From Methanobacteriota archaeon (GTDB lineage: Archaea > Thermoplasmatota > Thermoplasmata > SG8-5 > JAGLSY01), in NCBI GenBank assembly GCA_020697715.1, contig JAEHCO010000011.1:1-20780 (forward strand): DNA of 20,780 nucleotides, written 5' to 3'. Below, piece by piece: positions 1 to 18,330 of this stretch. A program made the position numbers and the translations under genes. Position 1 is the stretch's first letter; every line of letters begins with the position of its first letter. Below the pieces are notes generated by a model that was not told the origin of the DNA, ran no database searches, and was given only the letters and a program-made list of their open reading frames with translations.

Positions 1-3000
1 GTGGTCAATTCACATCTGTAATTCACATATACCTCATCGATACCAATAAAGTCCATAAGAGTACATGTGACTGTGAATTCATCACCTGTTGTGGGAGTAT
101 CAAATGTCAAATCCAGTATCTCTGGCAATAATTTGTAGCACCCCATCACATCGGCGATCGATGAATCCACCTCATACAATAGCGTTGTCGCATTACCCGA
201 GTGTGAATAGAATTGATAATAACCTTCATCATCATCCCCATCAAAGCTCATTGAGAATGGGTATGACGTATCATTGGAGTATAATGACCATGAGGTCCAA
301 GATGAATTATCAAATGAGGATCGATACCAGAATTCTACATATTCCGATCCAACGGCAGTAGCAGAAAGGTTCATTGGCATGGTCATCCACCAATATTCTG
401 ATGGTTGTATAATCTCGGAACATGGCTCTGTTATTCCCAGAGCCACTATCTCATCCGCAATGCCCATATCGACCTCGATATGGTCGAGCCCATCTGTCGC
501 GATCGTATAGAATTGATAGAATCCATCATCAGAGTAGGTGAAGTCCCAGGAATATGGATAGGTGGTATCATTACCATATGATGTCCATCCATCCCATGAG
601 ACATTATTTACCGAGTAATTGTAGAACAATTCCAATTGCTCTATACCAACTCCAGCATCATATGCCGTGGCGTTGACGATCAAAGGATCGTCAAAGTTCC
701 AGTAAGGCATTATTGCATCTACGGAGCTGGAAGGGCGTGTGGTATCATAGCCAGCGGATGTATCATTAGATAATGGGGCAGGCTCTCTGTTTCCTGCCAC
801 ATCGATGCCTATGGAATAGAATTCATAATAGCCATCGCCATTAGGATAAGTGAAGCTGGTAGTGTATGAGGCGGTCTGATCGACCCAATATGATAACCAG
901 CCTCCCCAGGATGAATTGTCTATCGAATATCTATACCAGAACTCAACCAGGCCCACACCGCTCATAGCATCCGTGGCTGAACAATTCAATATGATAGGGG
1001 AGGTATTGTTCCAATAAGGAGATATCATTCCGATCATTGAATCGGGATTGACAGTGTCCAATGCGATCTTGATATCAGCATTGCCCGGGCCAGTATCATT
1101 ATTCGTGGCATTGTCCACTCCTCCAGAATAGAATTCATAATAGCCATCACCATCAAGGAAATCAAAGCTGAAGGAATATGGAACCATGCCATCTATCCCA
1201 AACATTGTCCAATTACCCCAGGTTGAATTGTCCATGGAATATCTGTAATATAATTCGATCTCGTCCACATCGCTCATGGTGTCATTGGCAGTCACATTTA
1301 TCGTAATAGGAGTGGATGTGAACCAATACAAGCCAAGGGCATCGACAGAGGATGATGGATCTGTGATATCATAGCCTGCTGAAACATCAGCCATTCCTGG
1401 TGCACTCTCATAGTTCCCTGCAATGTCATGAGCCCTTGTATAGAAAGAGTAATTGCCTTCACCATCTGGCCATGTGAAATTCCATGACCAGGGAGCAATG
1501 ATATCGGTTCCATACAGGACATATGCGCCGCCCTCGAAGCTGTACCGTAATTCCACAGCGGTCAGTCCAGATGGACCACTATCACTGCCAGAGGCGGTTA
1601 TCGTCAATGGGCTGGAGTGCCAATATGGGGCTATAGCATCAACAGAGGTCGATGGATCTGCCGTATCAAGGCCAGACCCTGCATCGGCTATTGCAGGAGC
1701 GACCTCATAGAATGTGGATGTAACATTCCCAGCTCTGGAGTAGAACTCATAATAGCCTTCGCCATTCGGGAAATTAAAGCTCGATGTCCAGGATGTGCCA
1801 GTTGTGTCATTCGAATATTGTGACCAAGCATTCCATGAAGAATTATCTATGGAATATCTATACCAAAACTCAACATATTCAGCCTCATGAGCAGTGGCAG
1901 TCACTGATATGGGACCCATGAAATACCAGTGAGGTGAGATAGGGTCTATGAACGAATATGTCCCTGTACTATCTACCCAGCTCACATTCCAATAATATAG
2001 TTCTGGGCTTGCACTTCCATTGCCTGACAATCGTGCCAGTAATTTGATCGAAGGATAAGTGGCAGAGTTCAAGGTGGACAGGTCAATATCCGTACCTGTC
2101 ATATTCACATAGCCAGGTATTGTATCTCCGGTCGAACTTTCAAGTATGGTGACCGTGATATTGTTCACAGCACTTGGTTCGAACTTTGTCAAGTTAAGAG
2201 AGCCCCATACCTTTCCCCCAGGCAGAGATATGGATTCAGAGGTTATGTTGCCACTGGCAAAATAAGAGATGGGCATTCGAGCCCAGAATATTCTGTAATT
2301 AGATTGGGCCGTATAGCCTCCGGCATACCATAACTTGGCATATCCATCAGTATCGATCATGAATCTTGGGCAAATTATATTTCCATCATCCAATCCAGAT
2401 ACACTATTTGGAAGGCTAAGGCCGTGCTTTGTCCAGTTCTCTCCATCCATGGAGGTCGCATAATGAGTCTCTGCAGTGCTACCATCACTTCCTGCGAAGA
2501 ACATATAATAAAGATCATCGATCTTCGTGACATCAGGGTTACCTATAGAATAATCATCAATGCTACCCGGAGTTCCTAGGTCTAGGCATAATCCTTGCTT
2601 TGTCCATGTTATTCCATCCATGGAGGTTGCTATCATGATCCGACCAGTTGATGCGTCTGAATATCCACCATACCACATCTTGTAGGTTCCATCTGACATC
2701 TTCATGACTGAAGTGCCAATTGTAAATGTGTCATCAAGATCTCCAGAAGTCCCAATATCTACAACTACACCAAATCGAGTCCAGGATAAACCATCAGTAG
2801 ATTCTGCATAATGAATGCGCCAAACAGATCCATCATAGCCACCATACCACATCTTGTAGATTCCATCTTCTTTCAATACATTTGTATGACCCAAATGCGT
2901 GCTTTCTGTGCCTGCGCCAAGATTCATTACCTGGCCTTGTTTTGTCCAAGTAATGCAGTCAGTGGAAGTTGCATGGAATAAACGATAGTTACCACCATCC

Positions 3001-3362
3001 TTGCCAGAATACCACATCTTGTAGATTCCATCATCTTTTATCACGGATTGGCCTATATTTATCCAACCCTCTCCAGCACCACTCGGTGAAAAAGCCACAC
3101 CCTGCTTGTCCCAAATAGGATCCGTAAAGGAATTCTCATCAATAGAGGAAGTATTCAATGATACAGCATTATTGATCACGACATTATTGGATTCAGACAC
3201 ATTCAGAGTATTCTCAAAAGTGTCATTCCATCCATCCCCTGTACCGAGAAACACCTCGGCAATATCTTCTTTTGCGAGTGTATTGCCAGTAGAGACGATC
3301 AAAGACGATAGCATTATGCTCAATATTACTAAAAAACTAATATACTTTTTCAATAGACTCAT
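1..3362 (-). CDS. Large secreted surface protein (>1,120 aa, C-terminus outside the window): signal peptide, five-bladed beta-propeller, about six ~100-aa Ig-like repeats
   Basis: Hand-translated from ATG at 3362 (GGAGG upstream): MSLLKKYISFLVILSIMLSSLIVSTG... The frame stays open to the window edge (...FIGIDEVYVNYRCELT), so the ORF track omits it. Repeated blade motif YKMWYxG...RI..A.S.DG..W.K.G; many NxS/T sequons. Confidence 0.9.
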   Translation of the reverse strand, partial: MSLLKKYISFLVILSIMLSSLIVSTGNTLAKEDIAEVFLGTGDGWNDTFENTLNVSESNNVVINNAVSLNTSSIDENSFTDPIWDKQGVAFSPSGAGEGWINIGQSVIKDDGIYKMWYSGKDGGNYRLFHATSTDCITWTKQGQVMNLGAGTESTHLGHTNVLKEDGIYKMWYGGYDGSVWRIHYAESTDGLSWTRFGVVVDIGTSGDLDDTFTIGTSVMKMSDGTYKMWYGGYSDASTGRIMIATSMDGITWTKQGLCLDLGTPGSIDDYSIGNPDVTKIDDLYYMFFAGSDGSTAETHYATSMDGENWTKHGLSLPNSVSGLDDGNIICPRFMIDTDGYAKLWYAGGYTAQSNYRIFWARMPISYFASGNITSESISLPGGKVWGSLNLTKFEPSAVNNITVTILESSTGDTIPGYVNMTGTDIDLSTLNSATYPSIKLLARLSGNGSASPELYYWNVSWVDSTGTYSFIDPISPHWYFMGPISVTATAHEAEYVEFWYRYSIDNSSWNAWSQYSNDTTGTSWTSSFNFPNGEGYYEFYSRAGNVTSTFYEVAPAIADAGSGLDTADPSTSVDAIAPYWHSSPLTITASGSDSGPSGLTAVELRYSFEGGAYVLYGTDIIAPWSWNFTWPDGEGNYSFYTRAHDIAGNYESAPGMADVSAGYDITDPSSSVDALGLYWFTSTPITINVTANDTMSDVDEIELYYRYSMDNSTWGNWTMFGIDGMVPYSFSFDFLDGDGYYEFYSGGVDNATNNDTGPGNADIKIALDTVNPDSMIGMISPYWNNTSPIILNCSATDAMSGVGLVEFWYRYSIDNSSWGGWLSYWVDQTASYTTSFTYPNGDGYYEFYSIGIDVAGNREPAPLSNDTSAGYDTTRPSSSVDAIMPYWNFDDPLIVNATAYDAGVGIEQLELFYNYSVNNVSWDGWTSYGNDTTYPYSWDFTYSDDGFYQFYTIATDGLDHIEVDMGIADEIVALGITEPCSEIIQPSEYWWMTMPMNLSATAVGSEYVEFWYRSSFDNSSWTSWSLYSNDTSYPFSMSFDGDDDEGYYQFYSHSGNATTLLYEVDSSIADVMGCYKLLPEILDLTFDTPTTGDEFTVTCTLMDFIGIDEVYVNYRCELT
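135..1970 (-). repeat. About six tandem ~100-aa Trp/Tyr-rich Ig-like repeats inside the ORF (approximate bounds)
   Basis: Recurring pattern DT..P.S.V....PYW...P..I.A.A.D..SG...VE.WYRYS.DN.SW..W....D....S..F....G.GYYEFYS...D.AGN.E, period about 300-315 nt. Confidence 0.8.
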
Positions 3363-3421
3363 ACACCCACTTCCTCCAATATCCTATTACAGATATCAAT
3401 AATGTATGGAAGTAATTGAAT

Positions 3422-3436
3422 TATATAAAGTTTCTT
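3422..3436 (-). promoter_or_regulatory. BRE/TATA promoter for the 3362 ORF
   Basis: Minus strand AAGAAAC-TTTATATA about 60 nt upstream of the start codon. Confidence 0.6.
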
Positions 3437-3461
3437 AACATTGATGTAATATGTAAAAATA

Positions 3462-3485
3462 CTACCAGGCTTTTAAGCCTGGTAG
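3462..3485 (-). terminator. Hairpin terminator
   Basis: Perfect 11-bp inverted repeat CTACCAGGCTT-tt-AAGCCTGGTAG directly after the stop at 3487, followed by TATTTTT on the minus strand. Confidence 0.7.
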
Positions 3486-3486
3486 C

Positions 3487-6400
3487 TTATATTTTCTTCT
3501 TCATTTCTTTTATGTATTCTTCTTCCGTTATCTCTCCAGATATGAGCTTTTTGTCCAGATCGTTCAAATCTGCCATATCCGCATCCCCGGTCTTGCCCTT
3601 CTTCTTTTTGGCCTCAGATGTGATCAAAGTACTCGATACAAGCACTATTATCACGAGACCCATCAAGAATAAACCAGCATATGATGAAACACTGTTCTTC
3701 TGCGATTTCGAGTTCTCCACCTGTCCTGTTTCCAAGTCGAGTGGCTCAATACCGGCTTCATCTTCTGCCTCATCATCGCTTGACCTTATGGTCAAGATAT
3801 CTGGTTGGGTTGTGATAGCCAAAGAGGGCAGGAGGTTTGTATCATCCTCCTGTTCCCCCCCGTCAATGGCTATCACGGTTATCATGGGCGTGGGTCCGAC
3901 TAGCGATCCTTCCCCGGTGATCGCATCATTGCCTGAGACCCAAGCCCCATCATTGAGAGAGTATGTGCCAGGAGATGTGAATTCCTGTTTCCCAGCAGGG
4001 TTTGGTTTTGTAGATATGACAAGCTCAAGTGTGTGTATCTCATCTGCCGCCATAGTTCCGATATTCCATGTCAAAGAAGTTGAGCCAACCTGGCCAACTC
4101 CATTCGGTCCGTAGATAAGAACACCTGTGGTTATTGTGAAATCAATCAACTCAAGCTCAGCAGGAAGCACATCATGAACTACCACGTCCAATACATCGGA
4201 ATCTCCTGTATTGGCAACTGTGATCTGAAGTACCCAACCATATTTCGTGTGGGTGAATACCTCATCAGGCCCGGATGTCTTGATCTTGTCTATTGATAGT
4301 TTTCCACCAATTGGTGGATCTTCTGGTGGCTGTACAGGTTCGAATACCGTTATCTGGCATTCATCAGAGGCTACAAGGCCATCATTATCAATTACTGTAA
4401 GAATGACTGTGAAATTGCCTGTCGAGGCATAATCATGAGCTGGCGCGATACCAGTGCCATAGGTCCCGTCACCAAAGTCCCAGTTATAGGAGACAATACT
4501 TCCATCAGGATCATAGCTACCAGAGCCATCGAACTGGACATCAATGTTCAGGCATGCTTCCTGATCCAGGCCTGCATCTGAGATCGGCAGTATTGGAACA
4601 TATGGATCGATGACCTCCACCAAGCATTCATCAGAGACTGTAAGGCCATCATCATCTGTTACTGTGAGAGTGACAGAATATATGTCAACAGCATCAAAGG
4701 AATGCATAGGAACCGGGCCAGAAGCTGTATATCCATCTCCAAAGTCCCAGGAATAAGAAACTATCGCCCCATCAGGATCATAGCTACCAGAGCCATCGAA
4801 TTGGGTATCTGTGTATATGTCCACGATTATGTCTAAGCCTGCGTTTGCAATTGGGGGTACTGGCACATATGGCTCTGTCACCACGACTTCGCAGACATCG
4901 GAAGATGTCAAACCTCCATCATCTGTTACAGTTAGTGTAGCTGTGAAGCTGCCAGGAGTGGAATAGATGTGATATACAGCCATTCCAAAATCGGTCTGCC
5001 CATCTCCGAAGTCCCAGAAATATGAGATTATGGAACCATCTGGATCATAACTTGAATTTCCATTGAATTCAGCATTGGCGCCCACATCAACAAAGATATC
5101 TGCTCCGGCATCTGCGATTGGTGATTCATTGGATGGAATGTATGGGATGATGGATATCTGACCATTCGCCTGATTGTTTGTAAGATCTATATCCCCTGGA
5201 ACGACATCAGAGGCCACAGCTATAATGGAATGATCGCCCGGTTGATCTGCAAGCCAGCTTGTGGATACTGTTACTGTTCCATCGGCAGGAACGAATACAT
5301 CATACTGCCTATCTATAAGAGTTACTTCAGAAATAGTGTCAATATAGAAAGATACGGTGCATGTTGCATCCTGTCCGATCTTCGCGGCTGGTTTCTCAGC
5401 ATAGAATATGCGTACATTACTACCATCATAGCCATTGTACCAGCACTTCAAGGTATCGCCCTCTGTCATCATATAAGCGGCCGCCACCATATTGGTCTCA
5501 AGAGGCAAGGAACCTTCAAGGACTATGCCAGTCTTGATCCAGGTTATCCCATCAGTTGAGGTCGCATGCAATATCCTAGATGGCCCAGTATATGGAGCGT
5601 AACCTGTATAGTACATCTCATAACCTGTGTCTGTCACTATGACCTGAGGGTATGAAGCAGTTGGATAATCATATGGCCCATCATTGTTTATAACGACACC
5701 ATCCTTTATCCAAGGATCAGAAAGTTGCGCCTTGTGGGCGTGACATATCCTGCCCTCATTCGGAGAGCCCCAATCAGTCCCTCCATACCACATATGCCAT
5801 TCTGTTCCATCATAATGAACGAAAGGAACAGTGACACCATCAGGATCCGCAGCAGTTCCATAGCTCAGTTCCATCCCCAATTTCTGCCATGTTAGGCCAT
5901 CATCATAAGATATGGCTCTGTGAATATACCCACGGTATCCGCCATAGGAGCCTATACCGGTGTACCACATATGATAGATGCCGTCGTCATCTATCATCAC
6001 ATAAGGAGTAAGGACACCGTATTGTTCATACGCATTTCCATAATCAAGAGCCAGACCCTGCTTCTGCCATGTTATGCCATCCTGGCTTGTGGCACGGAAT
6101 ATCCTATGCCTGTATGTTAGGCCATCATCTCCATCCCCATTGTACCACATGACATAACTGCCATCATCCAGCTTTAGGACACATGGGTTTGTTACATGAA
6201 GATCCTCGCCAGTTCCACCAATGTCAATTATAACACCGCTCTTGACCCAGGAACTGCTTTGACTCTGATCTCCAAGAATATCAACATCGATGTTTATAAT
6301 ATCATTTTCAATGGCTTGATCGCTTGATAAGACCAAGGGATCCAATGAGATATCCACACCCACAGAAGGTTCTGGAAGAGCCTCCACACTTATTTGGGTA

Positions 6401-7770
6401 ATTGCCATATTATTAGTATTATCATTATCAATTGGATCTGAGTCAGTTATCTCAGCTATTATGTCATGGTCTCCTGGAACTGCTATCCAGTCAAATGATA
6501 CAGGAGTGTTGGAATCTGCTGGAACAAATGCATTTGTCTGCCTGTCTATCAGATTTGCCTCCGATACTGAATCTAAGTAAATTGACACTGTGCAGGTCGC
6601 ATCCTGACCGATCTTTGCAGCTGGCTTCTCAGAGTAGAAAATACGTTGATGGCTACCATCATAGCCAGTGTACCAACATTTAATGGTATCTCCCTCTATC
6701 GATATCTGGCCCATGCCCACCATGGTGGTCTCCAGAGGCGTGATGCCTTCAAGGACTATACCGGTCTTGGTCCAGGCAATACCATCTGATGAGGTCGCAT
6801 GCAGTATTCTTGAGGGTCCAGTATATGGAATAGAACCAGTATAATACATATCATAGCCAGTATCTGTTGGTACGATCCAAGGAGATACTGCGGATGGATA
6901 ATCATATGGTCCATCATTGTTTATAACGACACCGTCCTTTATCCAGGCATCAGATAGCTTTGCCTTATGAGCATGACATATCCTGCCCTCATTCGGAGAG
7001 CCCCAATCAATACCATCATACCACATATGCCATTCTGTTCCATCATAATGAACGTAGGGAGACCTAACACCATCTGGGTCTGCGGCAGTCCCATAATTCA
7101 ATTCCATACCTAATTTCTGCCATGTTATGCCATCATCATAGGATATGGCCTTGTGAATATACGCACGATAGCCGCCATTGGAGCCTATACCTGTATACCA
7201 CATATGATATATTCCATCATCATCTATAATAACATAAGGAGTAAGAACACCGTATTGTTCATACGCATTTCCATAATCAAGAACCATTCCCTGTTTCTGC
7301 CATGTTAGGCCATCCTGGCTTGTGGCGCGGAATATCCTATGCCTGTATGTTAGGCCATCATCTCCATCCCCATTATACCACATGACATAACTGCCATCAT
7401 CCAGCTTCAGAACACATGGACTTGTTATATGAAGATCCTCACCAGTGCCACCTATATCGATTATAACACCACTACCGACCCAGGAGCTATCCTGGGTCCG
7501 ATCTCCATTGATGCTGATATCAATAGATATGATCTCATCTTCAATAGCCTGGTAACTTGATAAGGCCAGTGCATCCAGTGACATATCCACATTGAATGAC
7601 TTTAATTCACCCTGCTGAGATGATGGTATCACATTATTTTCTGGTGTAGAGGCATCATCCATCTGAACAGAGCTTACCTGTTCCGGAACTGAACTCGCCA
7701 GTACCACAAAGGATACTGTGATCATCAGGCATGCGATAGCGAAGGTCACCAAGGTATTTTTCCGGTTCAT
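3487..7770 (-). CDS. Membrane-anchored surface protein: 2x (CARDB-like domain with inserted five-bladed beta-propeller), 3x PKD, DUF11-like domain, C-terminal TM helix, SHOCT tail
   Basis: 1427-aa ORF with AGGAG upstream. Signal peptide; MWYxG blade repeats; three SYDPDG.I.SY.WDFGDG PKD motifs; ITVANTG...VVVHDVLPAEL (DUF11-like); TM YAGLFLMGLVIIVLVSSTLI; tail LNDLDKKLISGEITEEEYIKEMKKKI. Confidence 0.92.
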   Translation of the reverse strand: MNRKNTLVTFAIACLMITVSFVVLASSVPEQVSSVQMDDASTPENNVIPSSQQGELKSFNVDMSLDALALSSYQAIEDEIISIDISINGDRTQDSSWVGSGVIIDIGGTGEDLHITSPCVLKLDDGSYVMWYNGDGDDGLTYRHRIFRATSQDGLTWQKQGMVLDYGNAYEQYGVLTPYVIIDDDGIYHMWYTGIGSNGGYRAYIHKAISYDDGITWQKLGMELNYGTAADPDGVRSPYVHYDGTEWHMWYDGIDWGSPNEGRICHAHKAKLSDAWIKDGVVINNDGPYDYPSAVSPWIVPTDTGYDMYYTGSIPYTGPSRILHATSSDGIAWTKTGIVLEGITPLETTMVGMGQISIEGDTIKCWYTGYDGSHQRIFYSEKPAAKIGQDATCTVSIYLDSVSEANLIDRQTNAFVPADSNTPVSFDWIAVPGDHDIIAEITDSDPIDNDNTNNMAITQISVEALPEPSVGVDISLDPLVLSSDQAIENDIINIDVDILGDQSQSSSWVKSGVIIDIGGTGEDLHVTNPCVLKLDDGSYVMWYNGDGDDGLTYRHRIFRATSQDGITWQKQGLALDYGNAYEQYGVLTPYVMIDDDGIYHMWYTGIGSYGGYRGYIHRAISYDDGLTWQKLGMELSYGTAADPDGVTVPFVHYDGTEWHMWYGGTDWGSPNEGRICHAHKAQLSDPWIKDGVVINNDGPYDYPTASYPQVIVTDTGYEMYYTGYAPYTGPSRILHATSTDGITWIKTGIVLEGSLPLETNMVAAAYMMTEGDTLKCWYNGYDGSNVRIFYAEKPAAKIGQDATCTVSFYIDTISEVTLIDRQYDVFVPADGTVTVSTSWLADQPGDHSIIAVASDVVPGDIDLTNNQANGQISIIPYIPSNESPIADAGADIFVDVGANAEFNGNSSYDPDGSIISYFWDFGDGQTDFGMAVYHIYSTPGSFTATLTVTDDGGLTSSDVCEVVVTEPYVPVPPIANAGLDIIVDIYTDTQFDGSGSYDPDGAIVSYSWDFGDGYTASGPVPMHSFDAVDIYSVTLTVTDDDGLTVSDECLVEVIDPYVPILPISDAGLDQEACLNIDVQFDGSGSYDPDGSIVSYNWDFGDGTYGTGIAPAHDYASTGNFTVILTVIDNDGLVASDECQITVFEPVQPPEDPPIGGKLSIDKIKTSGPDEVFTHTKYGWVLQITVANTGDSDVLDVVVHDVLPAELELIDFTITTGVLIYGPNGVGQVGSTSLTWNIGTMAADEIHTLELVISTKPNPAGKQEFTSPGTYSLNDGAWVSGNDAITGEGSLVGPTPMITVIAIDGGEQEDDTNLLPSLAITTQPDILTIRSSDDEAEDEAGIEPLDLETGQVENSKSQKNSVSSYAGLFLMGLVIIVLVSSTLITSEAKKKKGKTGDADMADLNDLDKKLISGEITEEEYIKEMKKKI
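4340..5130 (-). repeat. Three tandem PKD domains
   Basis: WDFGDG core occurs three times; identical stretch ATCAGGATCATAGCTACCAGAGCCATCGAA at ~4504 and ~4771 (267-nt period). Confidence 0.88.
5146..7593 (-). repeat. Intragenic tandem duplication of a ~411-aa CARDB+propeller module (5146-6360 and 6382-7593)
   Basis: 1233-nt offset between matching segments; long identical runs such as PCVLKLDDGSYVMWYNGDGDDGLTYRHRIFRATSQDG. Confidence 0.93.
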
Positions 7771-11497: not shown

Positions 11498-11577
11498 CCA
11501 ATCAGTACTCAAGATCTTCATCACGGAACAATCGGCATGCGCCAATAGTTCTCAGCAAGAGTTCAATCATCACAGAA
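11498..11577 (-). ncRNA. Box C/D methylation-guide sRNA
   Basis: Minus strand: C GUGAUGA (11573-11567), 11-nt guide UUGAACUCUUG, D' CUGA (11555-11552), hairpin spacer, C' GUGAUGA (11524-11518), 12-nt guide AGAUCUUGAGUA, D CUGA (11505-11502). TATA-like TTTTAATA at 11603-11596 is correctly spaced. Confidence 0.9.
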
Positions 11578-11624
11578 TCACTAATTCCAATTCATTATTA
11601 AAATCCTTTGTATGGAATTAGTGA
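11578..11624 (-). promoter_or_regulatory. sRNA promoter enclosed by a 12-bp perfect inverted repeat
   Basis: TCACTAATTCCA (11578-11589) / TGGAATTAGTGA (11613-11624) flank minus-strand CAAAGGA-TTTTAATA. Confidence 0.65.
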
Positions 11625-11637
11625 ATCTGCTCGTGTA

Positions 11638-11713
11638 GGCCATATCCTATTAATGCGGCGTCATGGGCGCCGCATCACTTTGCTGATTCTTCTTACGGAT
11701 ACGGCGGTATTCT
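11638..11713 (-). ncRNA. Putative structured RNA motif A, copy 1
   Basis: AGAAUACC-GCCGUAUCC..GAAGAAUCAGCA-[hairpin AUGCGGCG/CGCCGCAU]-GGAUAUGGC-C; homologous to 11776-11849 and 18074-18146. Confidence 0.55.
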
Positions 11714-11775
11714 TTCTGATTAATTCCAATTCATTATTAAAATCCTTTGTATGGAATTAGTGAATCTGCTCATGT

Positions 11776-11849
11776 GGCCATATCCTATCTGCGCGGCGTT
11801 ATGATCGCCGCATCACTTTACTGAATTATCTTACGGATACGGCAGTCTT
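11776..11849 (-). ncRNA. Putative structured RNA motif A, copy 2
   Basis: Same GCCGUAUCC/GGAUAUGGC stem and GCGGCG/CGCCGC hairpin; begins directly after the tmk stop. Confidence 0.5.
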
Positions 11850-12473
11850 TTAGTGCTGATGTTTAAAGCTTTCCTCAAGAATATCCTGTATATCAGCCAG
11901 CACCTTCTCAGCTGGCTGTCTCGCATTTATGATCCTCATACGGCCCTCGGTCTTCGCTATCCTGAGATAATTGGCTCGCACTTTTTCCAAATAATTATGC
12001 TTCTCGAACTTGGAGAGCTCCTCCCTGACCTTCAGGCGCTCCAGGGATGTCTCCGGGTCTATGTCGAGAAGGAATGTGATGTCTGGCTCGCGGATGACCG
12101 TGCTGTTCATCTGTGTTATCCAGTCCACCGAGTCGATGCCTTGCTTGGCCAGTAGTTCCTCAAGTGCCTCGCCCTGATAAGCGGTACTGGAATCACAATA
12201 CCGGTCAGAGATAACTACCTGACCGTCAGCCAGCTTCTTTTCCATGTCAAGCGTATGGGTCGCTCTGTCGGCCAAGAACAAGAAAACTTCGGTGTAGGGA
12301 CTGATCTCCTCGGTGTAGCTTCGGCGGACCGCCTGGCCCAGCCAGCTTTCCGAAGGCTCGAGGGTCAGGTACACTTCATGGCCCTTGGACTCAAGAATAC
12401 GGGCCAGTTCTTTTGAGGCCGTGCTCTTCCCACAGCCATCGATGCCTTCCAGAGTTATGAATAAGCCTGCCAT
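11850..12473 (-). CDS. tmk: Thymidylate (dTMP) kinase
   Basis: FITLEGIDGCGKST P-loop, FLADR, SDRY..S..AYQG, PD..FLLD. Start moved to ATG 12473 (MAGLFITLEG), which removes the overlap with the upstream ORF. Confidence 0.95.
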   Translation of the reverse strand: MAGLFITLEGIDGCGKSTASKELARILESKGHEVYLTLEPSESWLGQAVRRSYTEEISPYTEVFLFLADRATHTLDMEKKLADGQVVISDRYCDSSTAYQGEALEELLAKQGIDSVDWITQMNSTVIREPDITFLLDIDPETSLERLKVREELSKFEKHNYLEKVRANYLRIAKTEGRMRIINARQPAEKVLADIQDILEESFKHQH

Positions 12474-12537
12474 CAGGCTGGGAAAGGCCTGATGGTCAAA
12501 ATAGTTTGCGATTTTATTTTGCTCGGTCGTTCCCTTT

Positions 12538-13032
12538 TTAAACGGCAGGAGGCATTTCAAAGCAATCTTGTCCATTAATGAGAATTGATAAATTGTCAGG
12601 AAGCCAGATTAATTCGATTGTGTATTCTTCACCAGGAATTAAACCGGAGATTTCAAGATAATCTCCGGTATTTAATTCATAGCCAGCAGGGTAGTGATCA
12701 ACTAAAACAACAGTGACATTTGAATTCGATGATTCCACAATTGTGCAATTGGAATTGTGGTCTTCTGTAAATATGAATTCAGCTTGCTGGATATCACTTT
12801 TTAATCTCATCAATATTTCATCTGATTTGAATGGACCAGTAAAAAAATCATTCCCGAACTCTATTTTTGCCTCTGTTGGAGATGTCGTTTCAATACTGTT
12901 GAACCAATACCCTCCATCACCTACTGACTCATCGCTTGGCCAGAATACAATTAATAACGCAATTAGAATAACACAAACAATAATAATGAGAAATACTGGC
13001 TTCTTCATTTTGCCTACAGCCTTTTGTTCCAT
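12538..13032 (-). CDS. Small N-terminally anchored membrane protein with a beta-rich, possibly pilin-like, outer domain
   Basis: Basic N-terminus then hydrophobic VFLIIIVCVILIALLIVFW; C-terminal LNTGDYLEISGLIPGEEYTIELIW; GGAGTGA RBS. Confidence 0.7.
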   Translation of the reverse strand: MEQKAVGKMKKPVFLIIIVCVILIALLIVFWPSDESVGDGGYWFNSIETTSPTEAKIEFGNDFFTGPFKSDEILMRLKSDIQQAEFIFTEDHNSNCTIVESSNSNVTVVLVDHYPAGYELNTGDYLEISGLIPGEEYTIELIWLPDNLSILINGQDCFEMPPAV

Positions 13033-13122
13033 CCACTCACTCCCCTAACTGAATAGCGAATGTCCGGTAAAAACATTCGCATCACCTTAAACTACTTATC
13101 ATAGAAGGAAAATCCCAATCAC

Positions 13123-13761
13123 GTGTTCGCGAAGAAATGTATCCACTGGATAATCACGCCCTTCATAATTGCAGGGCTGATCTATTTCGTCATAGACCTG
13201 TCAAGTCTTGGTTTATGCTGGCTATGGCCTATCTTTGTATCGATCGGCATTTTCTTCATGATATTCTTCCGCGACCCAAAGCGCGAGATGGGAGATGGCA
13301 TCGTTGCTGCCGCTGATGGCGTCATCAGGGAAATAACTGATGACGGCCAGTATCTTAATCTATCGACATTCATGAACGTCCACAACGTTCATGTCAACCG
13401 CGCTCCGCTGGATGGGACAGTGGTGGACATCCAGCGTATCAAGGGAAGCTTCAAACCTGCCTTCTCTGGGGATGCTGGCGAGAACTCACGTGTCATGATC
13501 GATCTGGACACGGAGATCGGGAGAGTGAGAATAATCCAGATATCCGGGGTCTTCGCATACCGCATAGTGCCCTACATTGAGGTTGGCAAGCAGGTGAAAA
13601 AGGGAGATAGGATCGGCATCATCAGGTTCGGTTCCAGGGTGGATGTCATATTCCCCTCCAGAACCGTGAACCACACTGTCGAGCTCGGTCGTAAAATGAA
13701 GGCCAATATCAGCACACTGGCATATCCAATAACTAACTTTCGTGAGGAGGAAAGTCAATGA
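13123..13761 (+). CDS. psd: Phosphatidylserine/archaetidylserine decarboxylase proenzyme
   Basis: FFRDPKR, FMNVHNVHVNRAP and RFGSRVD (pyruvoyl self-cleavage) motifs; N-terminal TM segments; GTG start. Confidence 0.93.
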   Translation: MFAKKCIHWIITPFIIAGLIYFVIDLSSLGLCWLWPIFVSIGIFFMIFFRDPKREMGDGIVAAADGVIREITDDGQYLNLSTFMNVHNVHVNRAPLDGTVVDIQRIKGSFKPAFSGDAGENSRVMIDLDTEIGRVRIIQISGVFAYRIVPYIEVGKQVKKGDRIGIIRFGSRVDVIFPSRTVNHTVELGRKMKANISTLAYPITNFREEESQ

Positions 13762-14534
13762 GGTGGATGAGCCGTATATCCGCAGCCGATATCGTAACCC
13801 TGCTCAATGGATTGTCAGGATTGCTGGCCATCACGTATATCCTGGATGGGAAAATGATGGTCGCTTCTTGCTTCATCATACTGGCCATCGTGTTCGATGG
13901 TGTCGATGGAGCTGTCGCCAGGAAATTCGGCACTTCCCATGATTTCGGTCGTTTTCTGGATTCCATATCCGATTCTATTTCCTTCTGTTTCGCGCCCGCT
14001 TTACTGGTATATGGCAATCTTTATGACAAGGACCTCGGCAGTGCGTGGGTGAATATGCCTAATGCATTGGCTGTTGTCGCCACCATGTTCTTCGGTTCCT
14101 TCGGTATCCTGAGGTTGGCCAGATTCTCCAGCAAGGATTTCAAGCAAGGGTATTTCCTTGGATTTCCAACACCGGCTGCGGCGCTTGGCATCGTGATGTT
14201 CTGCAGTATCTTCGGAAACTCGGAGCTCAATCCCTTATCCAATGGCTTCGAGCCCAATTACATATTCGTATTCGCGATGGTACTGGCCTTCCTCATGGTG
14301 AGTGATGTACCATACCCGAAGATGAATAAGATATTCTTCGTATTGGCGGGGTTGACCGGACTACTCATCTCACTTCCATTCTTGATGTATCTGATGGATA
14401 TTGACATATTCTCCACTGCCACACTCGGCAATGTGGAATTGCTAGCCGCAATTCCATTCTCCGGATACCTTATCGGAGGGCCATTTATCACAAGCTGGAT
14501 GCGATGGAAAAGGAAGAAGAACAGAATTATTTGA
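13758..14534 (+). CDS. pssA: CDP-alcohol phosphatidyltransferase (archaetidylserine/phosphatidylserine synthase)
   Basis: DGVDGAVARKFGTSHDFGRFLDSISD signature, LRLARF, FLGFPTPAAA; ATGA overlap with psd and GAGG RBS. Confidence 0.92.
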   Translation: MRWMSRISAADIVTLLNGLSGLLAITYILDGKMMVASCFIILAIVFDGVDGAVARKFGTSHDFGRFLDSISDSISFCFAPALLVYGNLYDKDLGSAWVNMPNALAVVATMFFGSFGILRLARFSSKDFKQGYFLGFPTPAAALGIVMFCSIFGNSELNPLSNGFEPNYIFVFAMVLAFLMVSDVPYPKMNKIFFVLAGLTGLLISLPFLMYLMDIDIFSTATLGNVELLAAIPFSGYLIGGPFITSWMRWKRKKNRII

Positions 14535-14556
14535 TGTACTAACAATTTGCATTCAG

Positions 14557-14691
14557 CATGCCCCGTCTGGATGATAGAATTATGTCATCTGGAGGGCGGG
14601 GTACTGTATTCAATGAACATTCGAGTGACAAATACCAACGTGCTCCCTATTTAGAACCCCGTCTGAGTTCAGCGATGGCCGGGGGTGTCAA
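14557..14691 (+). repeat. Structured repeat B, left copy (135 nt)
   Basis: CATGCCCCGTCTG...GTCATCTGGAGGGCGGGGTACT...CGAGTGACA...CGATGG...TCAA; alignable end to end with the reverse complement of 16935-17071. Confidence 0.9.
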
Positions 14692-14812
14692 ACTCTCTGA
14701 AGTCCCAAAACATCCGAGTTAGGGATCAAAATCCCCACACCAAACTGGTCAATAATTTCCAGTTCTATTATATACTCAATTCCCCATTTTCGTGATATCA
14801 GGAGATAATGAA

Positions 14813-15763
14813 ATGAACAATAACAATGAGATCGCGATAGAGGTCAAGGGCGTGGCCAAGACCTATGATAAGGACGTTGAGGCACTGAAAGGTGTGGACT
14901 TCACCATCAATAAAGGCGAGGTCTTCACACTCCTCGGCCCCAATGGTGCTGGCAAGACCACTTTCATAAGGATACTGTGCACTCAGCTAATGCCCTCCAG
15001 AGGGGATATAACGATACTTGGAGATAGTGTGGTGGATGATCCGAATGCGGTCAGGGAGAATATCGCCATGGTGCCCCAGGATGCGATGGCCTATTCCAAT
15101 TTCACGCCCTGGGATTATGCATATGCCTTCTGCCTGCTGAGAGGGATGGATAAAGAAAAGGCCAAGAGAAAGGCCGAGGAAACCCTAAAGGCCGTTCTTA
15201 TGTGGGATATGAAAGATAAGCCATGCCAGGAGATGTCTGGCGGGGAGAAGAAAAGGGCGCTCATCGCTGCAACTATTGCCAGTGATGCCCCGATATTGGT
15301 ATTGGATGAGCCAACATCCGGCCTGGATGCCATAGGCAGACGCAATGTCTGGTCGGCCCTTCGGGACAGAGCCGCGCAGGGAAAGACCATTATCCTATCA
15401 ACTCACATGATGGATGAGGCCGAGATGGTGTCTGATAGGCTGGCCATAATAAAAAAAGGGGAACTGGTCACTATCGGCTCCACCAATGAGATCAAGAAAG
15501 CAGTACCATTCAAATACAGGATCATCGCGCCTGAAGATGCCATTGACAAGACCAAGTACACCGAGGTCACCAAGATCGGCGACAGAGCGGTCGTATACCT
15601 TACCAGCGACACAGAAGCTATCCAGTTAGTGTCTGATATGTTGAAGAAGGGCGTGAATGCCGAAGCTTCCCCCGTCACACTTGAGGATGCTTTTGTCAGA
15701 TTGGCTGGAGGCGACATATACGAGCTCAATGAAGAGGATAAGAAGGAGGTGAAGGTGAAATGA
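14813..15763 (+). CDS. ABC transporter ATP-binding protein (DrrA/CcmA-like exporter)
   Basis: Walker A GPNGAGKTT, signature MSGGE, Walker B LVLDEPTSGLD, H-loop STH, C-terminal TLEDAFV. Start set at ATG 14813 behind GGAG. Confidence 0.95.
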   Translation: MNNNNEIAIEVKGVAKTYDKDVEALKGVDFTINKGEVFTLLGPNGAGKTTFIRILCTQLMPSRGDITILGDSVVDDPNAVRENIAMVPQDAMAYSNFTPWDYAYAFCLLRGMDKEKAKRKAEETLKAVLMWDMKDKPCQEMSGGEKKRALIAATIASDAPILVLDEPTSGLDAIGRRNVWSALRDRAAQGKTIILSTHMMDEAEMVSDRLAIIKKGELVTIGSTNEIKKAVPFKYRIIAPEDAIDKTKYTEVTKIGDRAVVYLTSDTEAIQLVSDMLKKGVNAEASPVTLEDAFVRLAGGDIYELNEEDKKEVKVK

Positions 15764-16527
15764 TGGACATGAAGAAGTTCATCAGAGACACCTGGACCAT
15801 CACCTGGCTCAAATCTGTTCCCGACCTCAAGCGCCAGCCAGGCATATTGTTAATCCTCATGGGTTTCGCAGCCATACCCCTGTTCTTCATCACCCTCTTT
15901 GGTGGAGAGGACATGATGGATGTTGGACTGATAGGAGTGATAGTGTCCAGCATAGGTTTCATCGGCATATCGGCATCCATACAGGACCTTACCTGGGATA
16001 GATATGTCAAGCTCAAGGAGATGGTCGTGGCCATGCCAGTGCATCCGGTGGCTTATGCACTGGGGCTTACATTGGCTGCCCTGGTATTCACATTGCCAGG
16101 AGCAGTGGCCTTCACCATTTTCGGGCTTTACAGAGGTCTCTTTGATATCACCTCGATAATCATGATGGTCGGATCATTGTTACTATGCTGGGGCGGCCTT
16201 TCCGTAATGGGATTCACAGTTGCCACTTACCTGCACAAGTCAAGCCCAAATTCATTAGGGGTCTTGGCAAACCTTCTGAGCCTTGGGTTCGTATTCCTAC
16301 CGCCAGTATATTATTCCGAGACAATGCTGGAAAATGTGGGCGGCATGGACATCTCATGGGTAGTATACCTGCTTCCAACAACCAACTCCGCAGCCATAAT
16401 ACGATATTCCACTGGCTTGACAGAATGGGATGCCAGTGCCTTCATGCTTCACTGGGTGGCACTTGTAGTGATCCTTGTACTCTTCTCGGTCTTGGTCATC
16501 ACAAAGGCCAGGTGGAGAGAACCATAG
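15760..16527 (+). CDS. ABC-2 type exporter permease
   Basis: About six TM segments, FLPPVYY and YLLPTT motifs; ATGA overlap with the ATPase; GGAGGTGA RBS. Confidence 0.9.
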   Translation: MMDMKKFIRDTWTITWLKSVPDLKRQPGILLILMGFAAIPLFFITLFGGEDMMDVGLIGVIVSSIGFIGISASIQDLTWDRYVKLKEMVVAMPVHPVAYALGLTLAALVFTLPGAVAFTIFGLYRGLFDITSIIMMVGSLLLCWGGLSVMGFTVATYLHKSSPNSLGVLANLLSLGFVFLPPVYYSETMLENVGGMDISWVVYLLPTTNSAAIIRYSTGLTEWDASAFMLHWVALVVILVLFSVLVITKARWREP

Positions 16528-16582
16528 GCTTCCTGGAAACAATTAATAATGCCCCCTTCAATTCTGTTTGGAGGAGTTGAAC

Positions 16583-16906
16583 ATGGTCAAACCACCGCAG
16601 TACGAGGCAATGGATGAAACAAGGGCCTTCGAGACACCCAGAGCTTTCATAGAGGTCTTTGGAGAGGACAGCGAATATGAGCTTGAGAGAGAGGAGCCTC
16701 GCAGGGATCCAAATCCACCAGCTGGCCCAAGAGAATTCACATCATACCATGTCATGAAGGGGAATGAGAAAGTGGCCACGATACATTACAATGGCCACAT
16801 ATCCTGCTATGATGAGAGCATCCAGGACAAGATGGACAAGGTATCCGAGATACTTGAGAGGCATGCGAATGAGGCATATCTCAGAGTGATGGGCGGCGAA
16901 CGCTGA
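16583..16906 (+). CDS. Small acidic hypothetical protein (107 aa)
   Basis: GGAGGAG RBS before ATG 16583; AT-rich promoter-like AATTAATAA upstream; no family recognised. Confidence 0.75.
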   Translation: MVKPPQYEAMDETRAFETPRAFIEVFGEDSEYELEREEPRRDPNPPAGPREFTSYHVMKGNEKVATIHYNGHISCYDESIQDKMDKVSEILERHANEAYLRVMGGER

Positions 16907-16934
16907 GCTTCATTATTTTAAAAACTGCCAAAGA

Positions 16935-17071
16935 TTGAACCCCCTCGCCCATCGTTGGACTCCTGGCGAGGTTCCCGAATAGGAAGCAATTGGTGACTGT
17001 CACTCGTAGGGTCATCGAATATAGTACCCCGCCCTCCAGATGACAGGATACTGTCATTCAGACGGGGCATG
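16935..17071 (-). repeat. Structured repeat B, right copy (137 nt, inverted)
   Basis: Reverse complement reads CATGCCCCGTCTGAATGACAGTATCCTGTCATCTGGAGGGCGGGGTACT...GGGGGTTCAA. Confidence 0.9.
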
Positions 17072-17099
17072 TTCGCATTCATATAGCTTTTGAACCTTA

Positions 17100-18017
17100 C
17101 TATTTCATCAATAAGTCCATGACCGCCATCTCGGCCCACATTCGATTTTCGGCTTCGTCGAAAACCCTGGAGTTCGGAGAGTCGATTATCTCATCAGTGA
17201 CTTCCTCATTCCTATGAGCTGGCAGGCAGTGCAGGAATATGTAATCTGATTTTGCCAGAGCAACGAGTTCCGCATTCACCTGGAAAGGCGGGAACACCTT
17301 GTTCCTCTGCTCCTTCTCGGCCTCATCGCCCATGGAAACCCAGGTATCCGTGTAGATGACATCCGCGTCCTTGACCGCGTATATTGGGTCTGCCGAATGC
17401 TCTATCGTGCAACCTCTCTCAACTCCCAGAGCTTTTGCCTTGGCCAGTACTTCCTGGTTCGGTTCATATCCTACAGGACAGGCGGCCACCATGTGCATGC
17501 CGACTGCGGCGCTTCCCAGTAAAAGTGAATTGCAAACATTGTTACCGTCACCCAGGTAAACGAGCTTCAGGCCTTTCAAGCTGCCTTTCTGCTCCTTTAT
17601 CGTTTGAAAGTCAGCGAGTATCTGGCACGGGTGCTCGAGGTCATCCAATCCGTTGATAACAGGGACATCCGCATGTTCTGCCAATTGCTGCATGATCCTG
17701 TAATCGAAAGCGCGGTACATGATCCCATCAACATAGCGAGAAATAACTTTCGCCACATCGTACACACTCTCACGCTTTCCGACCTGGATCTCATTTGGTG
17801 ATAAGTAGAGGCCAGTTCCTCCCAGCTTGTATATTCCTAATTCGAATGATACTCTTGTTCTCAAGCTGGGCTTCTCGAAGATCATACCGAGAACTTTTTC
17901 TTTCAATGGTTTCTCACCATTGCCAGCCTTCTGCTTCGCCTTCAGTTCAATCGCCCTATCCAGCAAAATATCGATCTCATCCTTGACATCCAGTATGGAA
18001 ATTAAGTCGCGCTTCAT
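17100..18017 (-). CDS. argF: Ornithine carbamoyltransferase
   Basis: FEKPSLRTR, HPCQ, DTWVSMG, HCLP motifs. ATG 18017 lies 9 nt behind a GGTGA RBS (alternative GTG 18026). Confidence 0.96.
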   Translation of the reverse strand: MKRDLISILDVKDEIDILLDRAIELKAKQKAGNGEKPLKEKVLGMIFEKPSLRTRVSFELGIYKLGGTGLYLSPNEIQVGKRESVYDVAKVISRYVDGIMYRAFDYRIMQQLAEHADVPVINGLDDLEHPCQILADFQTIKEQKGSLKGLKLVYLGDGNNVCNSLLLGSAAVGMHMVAACPVGYEPNQEVLAKAKALGVERGCTIEHSADPIYAVKDADVIYTDTWVSMGDEAEKEQRNKVFPPFQVNAELVALAKSDYIFLHCLPAHRNEEVTDEIIDSPNSRVFDEAENRMWAEMAVMDLLMK

Positions 18018-18073
18018 CTTATTCACTCACCTTCAAACTACCAGACCTTAGAGTCTGTATGTTTTCATACATG

Positions 18074-18146
18074 GGCCATATACTCCAACCTCGGAGTTGA
18101 TTCCTCCGAGGTATGCTGATCTTCGATGAGCATACGGCGGTATTCT
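18074..18146 (-). ncRNA. Putative structured RNA motif A, copy 3 (argF leader)
   Basis: AGAAUACC-GCCGUAUGCUC..GAAGAUCAGCA-[hairpin CCUCGGAG/CUCCGAGG]-GAGUAUAUGGC-C. Confidence 0.55.
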
Positions 18147-18330
18147 TCTTGGGTATAACAGGGCTATAGAAAATACTTTTTATCAGGACACGGATGAGGC
18201 AATAGAGATCGGTGGAAGGGAAATGAAACAATTCAGTGTAGTCTGGCTCGCTTTTTCCATGCTAATTTATCATACCGATACATTTATTTCCTTAGACCTA
18301 GATTAAGCTCTAGATATGGAGGAGAGATGT

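Follow-up and report, generated by a model that had tools for sequence, protein, structure and literature searches.

Motif A, a modular, structured and probably mobile repeat in genomes of uncultured Thermoplasmata

Positions 1 to 20,780 of contig JAEHCO010000011.1, from a Thermoplasmatota archaeon (assembly GCA_020697715.1), were analysed, and this whole stretch of 20,780 nt is referred to below as the window. An earlier reading of its letters alone, the original prediction, had described a three-copy structured RNA motif of about 75 nt, termed motif A, and recognised no family for it. The analysis shows motif A to be the middle hairpin of a longer modular unit that reaches 205 nt, with a 5' domain before it and a second hairpin (H2) after it. 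The units have been copied to unrelated intergenic sites, and the occupied sites differ between sister species. We consider it probable that the family is an undescribed, modular, non-autonomous and protein-less mobile structured repeat, some copies of which have been retained by the host.

The window belongs to a genome of 2.12 Mb in 34 contigs that is 94% complete (G000). A covariance model, R1, was built from the three window copies and two more found by pattern search; it placed the window copies within 4 nt of the positions first proposed, all on the minus strand. R1 bounded copy 1 at 11634-11710 (79.5 bits), copy 2 at 11772-11848 (74.2 bits) and copy 3 at 18070-18143 (81.3 bits). As features, copy 1 with its 5' leader AUCAGAAAGAAUACC occupies 11634..11720, the copy 2 part 11772..11851 and the copy 3 part 18070..18146. 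On the minus strand all three fold with the closing stem GCCGUAU/AUAUGGC, which contains a G·U pair and is extended by CC/GG in copies 1 and 2 and by GCUC/GAGU in copy 3, as had been predicted. Past this stem come 15-21 nt of 5' internal loop and then the inner hairpin, with 7-10 bp and seven nucleotides in its loop; on the 3' side 2-5 nucleotides are unpaired. The sequences also bore out the 5' AGAAUACC and the GAAGA(A)UCAGCA common to copies 1 and 3, along with an inner hairpin in copy 3 that is wholly different in sequence. Relative to dinucleotide shuffles the minus-strand folds of copies 1 to 3 had z scores of -4.6, -3.7 and -5.2, with none of 200 shuffles as stable, whilst the plus-strand folds were poorer (z -2.5, -1.7 and -2.7). 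Searches of Rfam 15 gave no match at gathering thresholds, either across the whole window, where permissive thresholds returned chance-level matches only, or over 12 further loci with long and short elements, where the sub-threshold matches were likewise at chance level; the earlier failure to recognise a family was thus upheld.

The count of three copies did not stand. R1 gave 22 matches at E <= 1 in the window genome, 18 of which were counted as members; 15 of these are full-length and three (C28:68736, C34:23486 and C11:314727) are interrupted by a common insertion of ~95 nt at the same position in the 5' strand of the lower stem. The survey covered 41 genomes, G000 and 40 relatives, among which G000 to G004 form a single family, f1. 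At E <= 0.001 R1 had 17 matches in G000, 8 in G001, 68 in G002, 13 in G003 and 48 in G004, and matches were present in only three of the 36 genomes outside f1. Across the order (22 genomes) at E <= 1e-5, matches occurred in all five f1 genomes versus two of the 17 others. Several matches in a genome of another family (G021) have the same contig coordinates and scores as matches in G004, so that the two bins probably share contigs and the matches outside f1 are doubtful. Within the genomes searched, the motif A family thus appears limited to one family-level clade of uncultured Thermoplasmata. The assemblies are 74% (G002), 83% (G004) and 94% (G003) complete, and many matches in the 370-contig G002 lie no more than 250 nt from a contig end.

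Covariation was assessed with 82 R1 matches from the five genomes, 79 of them distinct. Standard pairs filled 98.5% of 1422 stem cells in the distinct copies and 16 of 18 pairs had changed on both sides, in agreement with the covariation claimed from the window copies, figures which are biased towards structure in that the alignment was fitted to the model and the same model picked the matches. None of 500 shuffles matched these pairing values, and in controls where the 3' partners were slid by 1-3 columns only 29-46% of cells were paired. The initial sample of 43 matches had given 97.7% paired cells and double changes in 14 of 18 pairs. Many different compensated stem sequences are visible in the raw alignment and are not a product of model bias. 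G·U and U·G pairs outnumbered A·C and C·A combinations by 95 to 3 (20 to 3 when the conserved G·U pair was omitted), an excess indicating that the fold matters on the strand first read as sense (minus in the window), as RNA or as single-stranded DNA; the strand preference that the original prediction had drawn from G-U pairs extends across the family. The structure is under selection on one strand only.

In the family as a whole, the lower stem of motif A comprises 9-12 bp with the conserved G·U pair, and leads into the AU-rich 5' internal loop and the upper hairpin. The 5' loop retains a degenerate consensus, AUCAAUAAU.AUUCAA.CUGAA, and is not freely variable. H2 follows ~8 nt past motif A in nearly all copies, with the consensus G.AAC-(A/U)U-CAGG...CCUG-UA-GUU.C, and an alignment of 29 short forms contained compensatory changes in all 11 predicted pairs. 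A second model, R2, found 14 H2 hairpins in the window genome, of which 11 stand directly after motif A, including that behind copy 3 (18024..18073, minus strand; 36.9 bits, E 7.5e-7); two of the remainder are solitary at gene ends and one is beside a degenerate motif A. The 5' domain is present in most copies of the relatives and consists of three stacked helices with a variable apical hairpin. Its stems covary (UUACUGC/GCAGUAA, GGUCGA/UCGACC) and its internal loop GAAC/AUGAA is conserved.

The bounds of the unit can be read from two copies on different contigs of G002, which have 200 of 205 nt in common and unrelated flanks, so that the copied unit runs from the strand that opens the 5' domain to the strand that closes H2. 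These 205 nt fold as three domains (z -6.7), and no terminal inverted repeats were found, the two ends not being inverted copies of each other. Shorter forms (motif A with H2, or motif A alone) also occur, as do forms with other hairpin modules nested inside. In other pairs of copies motif A is 91-95% identical yet the 5' or 3' modules differ, and the G003 counterpart of window copies 1 and 2 (L050, about 1290-1380) carries ~85 nt of extra hairpins, including a module like the 5' domain, within the 5' internal loop of motif A. Near-identical motifs with differing modules, together with the nested hairpins, indicate that modules have been exchanged or inserted into one another.

All 18 copies in the window genome are intergenic; 11 have a co-oriented downstream gene and seven do not. 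Among 35 loci with at least 1 kb of flank, for which open reading frame (ORF) calls were crude, 11 were divergent and seven convergent, nine sense and seven antisense between co-directional genes, and one undetermined. This mixed sense and antisense placement argues that orientation is not tied to transcription. When 20 element loci of the relatives were compared with G000, five (L025, L032 and L046 of G003; L026 and L041 of G001) had both flanks matching a G000 site that is empty, three (L035, L040 and L048) were filled in both genomes, and 12 were unplaced. The insertion at L046 is clean and measures ~125-143 nt. Conversely, at the copy 3 site G003 and G001 have 7-11 unrelated bases where G000 has ~118-128 nt of motif A and H2, an insertion whose approximate extent in a three-locus alignment is 18035..18152 on the minus strand.

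Some insertions are flanked by long target duplications of variable length, which include the 3' ends of tRNA genes. L041 lies between repeats of ~50-59 nt, and the same stretch is single-copy at the empty G000 site. Seven copies adjoin tRNA genes (two at C22 and one at C28 of G000; L153, L183, L189 and L040), and each is then followed by a second copy of at least the last 12 bases of the tRNA. Within the window, copy 1 with its leader makes up the 84 nt between two long direct repeats, which set its bounds; the right-hand copy on the plus strand is at 11582..11636 and the left-hand copy, between copies 1 and 2, at 11721..11775 (repeat family D20, 98% identical, no strand assigned). They show one difference in 55 nt, and 57 of 61 positions are identical over the extended length. 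Overall, duplication length ranged from none to 61 nt.

Stacked insertions were observed behind two tRNA-Leu genes of the window genome (C22:278740-279310 and C28:52235-52600; L007 and L009). Each stack begins with another hairpin module of ~90 nt that ends in a look-alike of the tRNA 3' half, followed by one or two motif A and H2 units, behind each of which the tRNA 3' end is repeated once more. A different insert, hairpin-rich and of ~105 nt, was found at C29 about 104650-104864 (L196), where 21 identical bases of the end of the aIF5B gene are repeated beyond it. It has no sequence in common with motif A or H2, and being alike in behaviour it indicates that G000 harbours at least two such families, and hints at a common host route.

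One position is occupied throughout family f1. Copies 1 and 2 are located between the genes for thymidylate kinase and an M18 aminopeptidase, copy 2 starting 1 nt past the stop codon of the former, and an element is present at the thymidylate kinase position in all five genomes. Within the genus the stems are kept or compensated (one pair is U-A, U·G or C-G) and the loops have diverged; in G004, which belongs to another genus, both stems are different and still paired. Such conservation suggests that the locus is under selection, or else that a hotspot has been used repeatedly. Only G000 has two copies here, in a tandem of ~138 nt, and either copy 2 or copy 1 would be the old retained one, situated between the thymidylate kinase gene and a probable C/D box small RNA (sRNA) gene. 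Copies 1 and 2 differ at 13 of 74 motif positions versus one of 55 in the flank that follows (Fisher p 0.004), and of the 18 differences between them over 80 nt, 14 affect unpaired positions. This uneven divergence may stem from gene conversion of the flank, from fast evolution of the loops or from the assembly of two strain variants.

If the family is indeed mobile, its elements would move in folded, single-stranded form, most likely as DNA, and would be recognised in trans by an enzyme that the host encodes. After insertion, a retained copy may serve as the 3' hairpin of a preceding gene or belong to an sRNA transcription unit, in the manner of bacterial repetitive extragenic palindromic (REP) sequences. 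As the mobilising enzyme we can put forward, tentatively, a single-copy IS200-type Y1 (HUH) transposase, a possibility we rate below even chances; it was the only shared candidate found, with one Y1_Tnp gene in each of G000, G001 and G003. Hairpin ends that are strand-specific, the lack of inverted repeats and insertion independent of transcription would fit an enzyme of this type. The Y1 gene of G000 (C1:16359-16709, minus strand; L067) lies between msrB, with which it is convergent and overlaps at its end, and a tRNA gene next to which is a partial tRNA duplicate. Comparison of G000 with G003 shows the Y1 segment inverted relative to its flanks, and the Y1 gene ~71% identical as against ~89% for the flanks.

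Other routes of mobilisation were considered and set aside. Retrotransposition was rejected, as a reverse transcriptase was encoded in G004 only and not in the 94%-complete G000 and G003, and a Cas1 or casposase route, considered given the tRNA 3'-end targets, was rejected with Cas1 found in none of the five genomes. Of the DDE/rve transposases, DDE_Tnp_1 was present in G004 only and rve in none of the five; IS110 was represented only by a fragment on a 502-nt contig of G000. No TnpB scored above the cut-off in G000 to G004. The single tyrosine recombinase gene of G000 (PF00589) is also found at full length in G001 and G003, and is thus probably a housekeeping Xer-type enzyme.

A broader and still less probable proposal is that the motif A elements and the aIF5B element are substrates of one undescribed archaeal insertion pathway, in which folded single-stranded elements would be inserted at the boundaries of genes, tRNAs and sRNAs with duplication of up to ~60 nt of target. 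Such a pathway could be a counterpart, run by the lone Y1 enzyme, of the bacterial systems of REP doublets forming hairpins (REPINs) and REP-associated tyrosine transposases (RAYTs); or else the unit with its three hairpins might represent a mobile ribonucleoprotein RNA of a new class.

Several observations weigh against mobility in general, or against the Y1 enzyme in particular. Stems conserved at one position across genera point to a host-level function, which a purely selfish element would not need, and the median pairwise identity of motif A within a genome (57-65%) indicates that most copies are old and that most of the family has not been recently active. The duplications are irregular: none was found at L046 or at copy 3, and only four of the 18 G000 copies have a flanking repeat of at least 18 identical positions, so that the duplications may come by another route, for example local tandem duplication. 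IS200/IS605 elements are not known to produce long target duplications, which a Y1 enzyme would leave unexplained. The Y1 gene was not found in G002 (74% complete) or G004 (83% complete), the most copy-rich genomes; R1 and R2 had no match in the 3.3-kb loci around the three Y1 genes; and 22 of the 41 genomes, mostly those without R1 matches, have a Y1 gene of this kind.

Among the alternatives, the one that survives best is a family of independently transcribed small non-coding RNA (ncRNA) genes, the RNA part of a ribonucleoprotein, which has multiplied and whose variable loops would give each copy a specificity of its own; we regard it as unlikely, albeit worth serious weight. The strand-specific structure, the strong covariation and the three neat hairpin domains with conserved single-stranded linkers would all be expected of such genes. 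So would the thymidylate kinase position, where stems are kept and loops diverged in five genomes directly upstream of the C/D box sRNA, and the comparison of copies 1 and 2 given above, both in its excess of unpaired differences and in the contrast of element with flank. However, the copied unit starts at the first base of its first hairpin and so carries no upstream promoter, and there was no conserved TATA-like box upstream of the copies inspected. Moreover, genomes of a single genus carry anywhere between 8 and 68 copies, modules can stand alone or inside one another, and some copies are antisense between co-directional genes. The GAAC/AUGAA loop of the 5' domain would, under the ncRNA-gene explanation, be a protein-binding K-turn-like site, but by inspection it does not fit the standard K-turn pattern.

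Copy 3 bears on a second alternative, in which the motif is a cis-acting leader (a riboswitch, a protein-binding leader or an RNA thermometer) for the gene downstream. It sits with a TATA-like box on one side and, on the other, the ribosome-binding site of an aspartate/ornithine carbamoyltransferase gene, and its H2 ends 4 nt short of the Shine-Dalgarno sequence; several copies in the relatives likewise end just ahead of a ribosome-binding site and start codon. As a class, leaders are nonetheless largely refuted, and we give them very little credence. The genes beside the window copies (M18 aminopeptidase, thymidylate kinase and carbamoyltransferase) are functionally unrelated, seven of the 18 copies have no co-oriented downstream gene and seven are antisense between co-directional genes, whilst conservation is lowest in the unpaired segments, from which a ligand pocket would have to be built. 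The carbamoyltransferase gene has no such leader in the relatives, R1 having no match in 11 of 11 related loci. Copy 3 was inserted, in this lineage specifically, into the region of the leader or promoter of this gene; if the old promoter is still used, the carbamoyltransferase mRNA would have a structured leader of ~125 nt that ends 4 nt before the ribosome-binding site.

Least credible of all is an atypical H/ACA-type or other antisense guide RNA pairing with its target through the large internal loop, for although the hairpin-internal loop-hairpin shape, the variable loop sequences and an ACA past the stem of copies 1 and 2 recall such guides, no ACA or ANA is conserved (family tails read UAUG, GCUG, UUUG, CAUG and others), the 2-5 nt of the 3' loop strand leave no two-sided pocket, the upper stem, an ordinary helix of 7-10 bp capped by a 7-nt loop, has by inspection no K-turn or K-loop, no Rfam H/ACA model matched, and the 5' loop keeps its degenerate consensus rather than varying freely. 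The ACA noted by the original prediction is real in copies 1 and 2 and not conserved in the family. The functions which that prediction suggested (riboswitch-like aptamer, leader or H/ACA-type guide) went unsupported, given unrelated neighbouring genes, mixed orientation, the unconserved ACA and the short 3' side of the loop. An H/ACA or other guide identity was rejected on anatomy only, and a C/D box sRNA identity of motif A on the lack of C (RUGAUGA) and D (CUGA) boxes with a guide spacing of ~12 nt.

The original prediction had also counted a MITE, or miniature inverted-repeat transposable element, among the outcomes that would speak against a functional RNA. In spirit this came true, in that motif A is a dispersed repeat whose site occupancy varies between species, but it corresponds to no MITE so far described and lacks terminal inverted repeats. 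A classical MITE was rejected on the same lack, as well as on the absence of a fixed-length duplication and, in G000 to G004, of an autonomous insertion sequence (IS) with the same ends.

The mobile-repeat reading invites comparison with small repeats of bacteria. REP sequences, the bacterial interspersed mosaic elements (BIMEs) and REPINs are mobilised by single-copy RAYT (TnpA_REP) Y1 transposases (PMC2817692, PMC3116915 and PMC5581495), and sections of PMC6006769 report only the ordinary IS200 subclass of Y1 from Archaea and describe REP systems as bacterial. Motif A resembles REP and BIME sequences in being a short noncoding intergenic hairpin repeat with many diverged copies, maintained stems, composite mosaics and some copies that serve the host. 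A single Y1 gene per genome, as in REP/REPIN-RAYT systems, was found in G000, G001 and G003 but in neither G002 (74% complete) nor G004 (83% complete), and the gene also occurs in relatives that lack the element. Motif A differs in that its units are multi-hairpin and of 75-205 nt, whereas REPs are palindromes of 20-40 nt; they are not arranged in inverted pairs, no repeats flank the Y1 gene, this gene looks like the ordinary IS200 type, and REP sequences are not characterised by long target duplications.

BOX elements of Streptococcus pneumoniae and the enterobacterial repetitive intergenic consensus (ERIC), or intergenic repeat unit (IRU), sequences of enterobacteria are modular structured intergenic repeats. 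Motif A is like them in its separable hairpin boxes, variable module content, intergenic location, lack of coding capacity and lack of a known transposase; there is no sequence relation, however, the host here is archaeal, and the unit bounds and a recent copying event are directly readable. Subterminal hairpins that are strand-specific, and a lack of terminal inverted repeats, are found in palindrome-associated transposable elements (PATEs) and other non-autonomous derivatives of IS200/IS605. Motif A likewise has strand-specific end hairpins without terminal inverted repeats, along with irregular target duplication and an orientation independent of transcription, but its two end hairpins are unlike each other and unlike the sequence beside the resident Y1 gene, and duplications of 12-61 nt accompany some of its insertions. 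Furuta, Abe and Kobayashi (2010; PMC2853133) described insertion with long target duplication. In common with it are flanking duplications of tens of bases that vary in length and rebuild the end of a gene or tRNA; the known cases, however, are kilobase gene cassettes or transposase-bearing ISs, whereas motif A elements are gene-less and of no more than ~200 nt.

Bacterial small structured repeats, REP, BIME, BOX and ERIC among them, have been studied in depth, whilst archaeal counterparts have barely been described. In the literature searched on RAYT/REP, long target duplication, archaeal MITEs and Thermoplasmata ncRNAs, no such repeats of Thermoplasmata were found, and the main text of a large MITE census (PMC11602168) does not mention the group, though its supplements might include the motif A family. 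With its covariation, its unit bounds, the filled and empty sister sites and the duplications that rebuild tRNA and gene ends, the family is unusually clean material. Its study could reveal an unknown mobilisation route and the way such elements turn into host signals for RNA processing or mRNA stability. Repeats of this kind also break metagenome assemblies and can be mistaken for riboswitches or sRNA genes.

The remaining observations concern the neighbourhood of the window copies. The probable C/D box sRNA lies at 11498-11578 on the minus strand, directly downstream of copy 1, and consists in order of a C box UGUGAUGA, an 11-nt guide, a D' box CUGA, a hairpin spacer, a C' box CGUGAUGA, a 12-nt guide and a D box CUGA. 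The boxes and both guides are conserved in G001 to G004, and Rfam returned sub-threshold matches only, to sR2 and U54. Between motif A and this sRNA is a further hairpin (11576-11628, minus strand), which falls within the 55-nt duplicated stretch and has its duplicate at about 11714-11766. This hairpin covaries, with CACUAAUUCCA/UGGAAUUAGUG in G000 versus CAAUUAAUUCAG/CUGAAUUAAUG in G001, and G004 has another stem. Further along, positions 3-7770 of the minus strand hold two very large ORFs, of 1120 aa (open-ended) and 1427 aa, with extensive internal DNA repeats whose periods are 267-312 nt and 1233 nt; domains of the PKD, GH32-like, BNR-like and DUF11 kinds in the 1427-aa ORF indicate that it probably encodes a surface protein.

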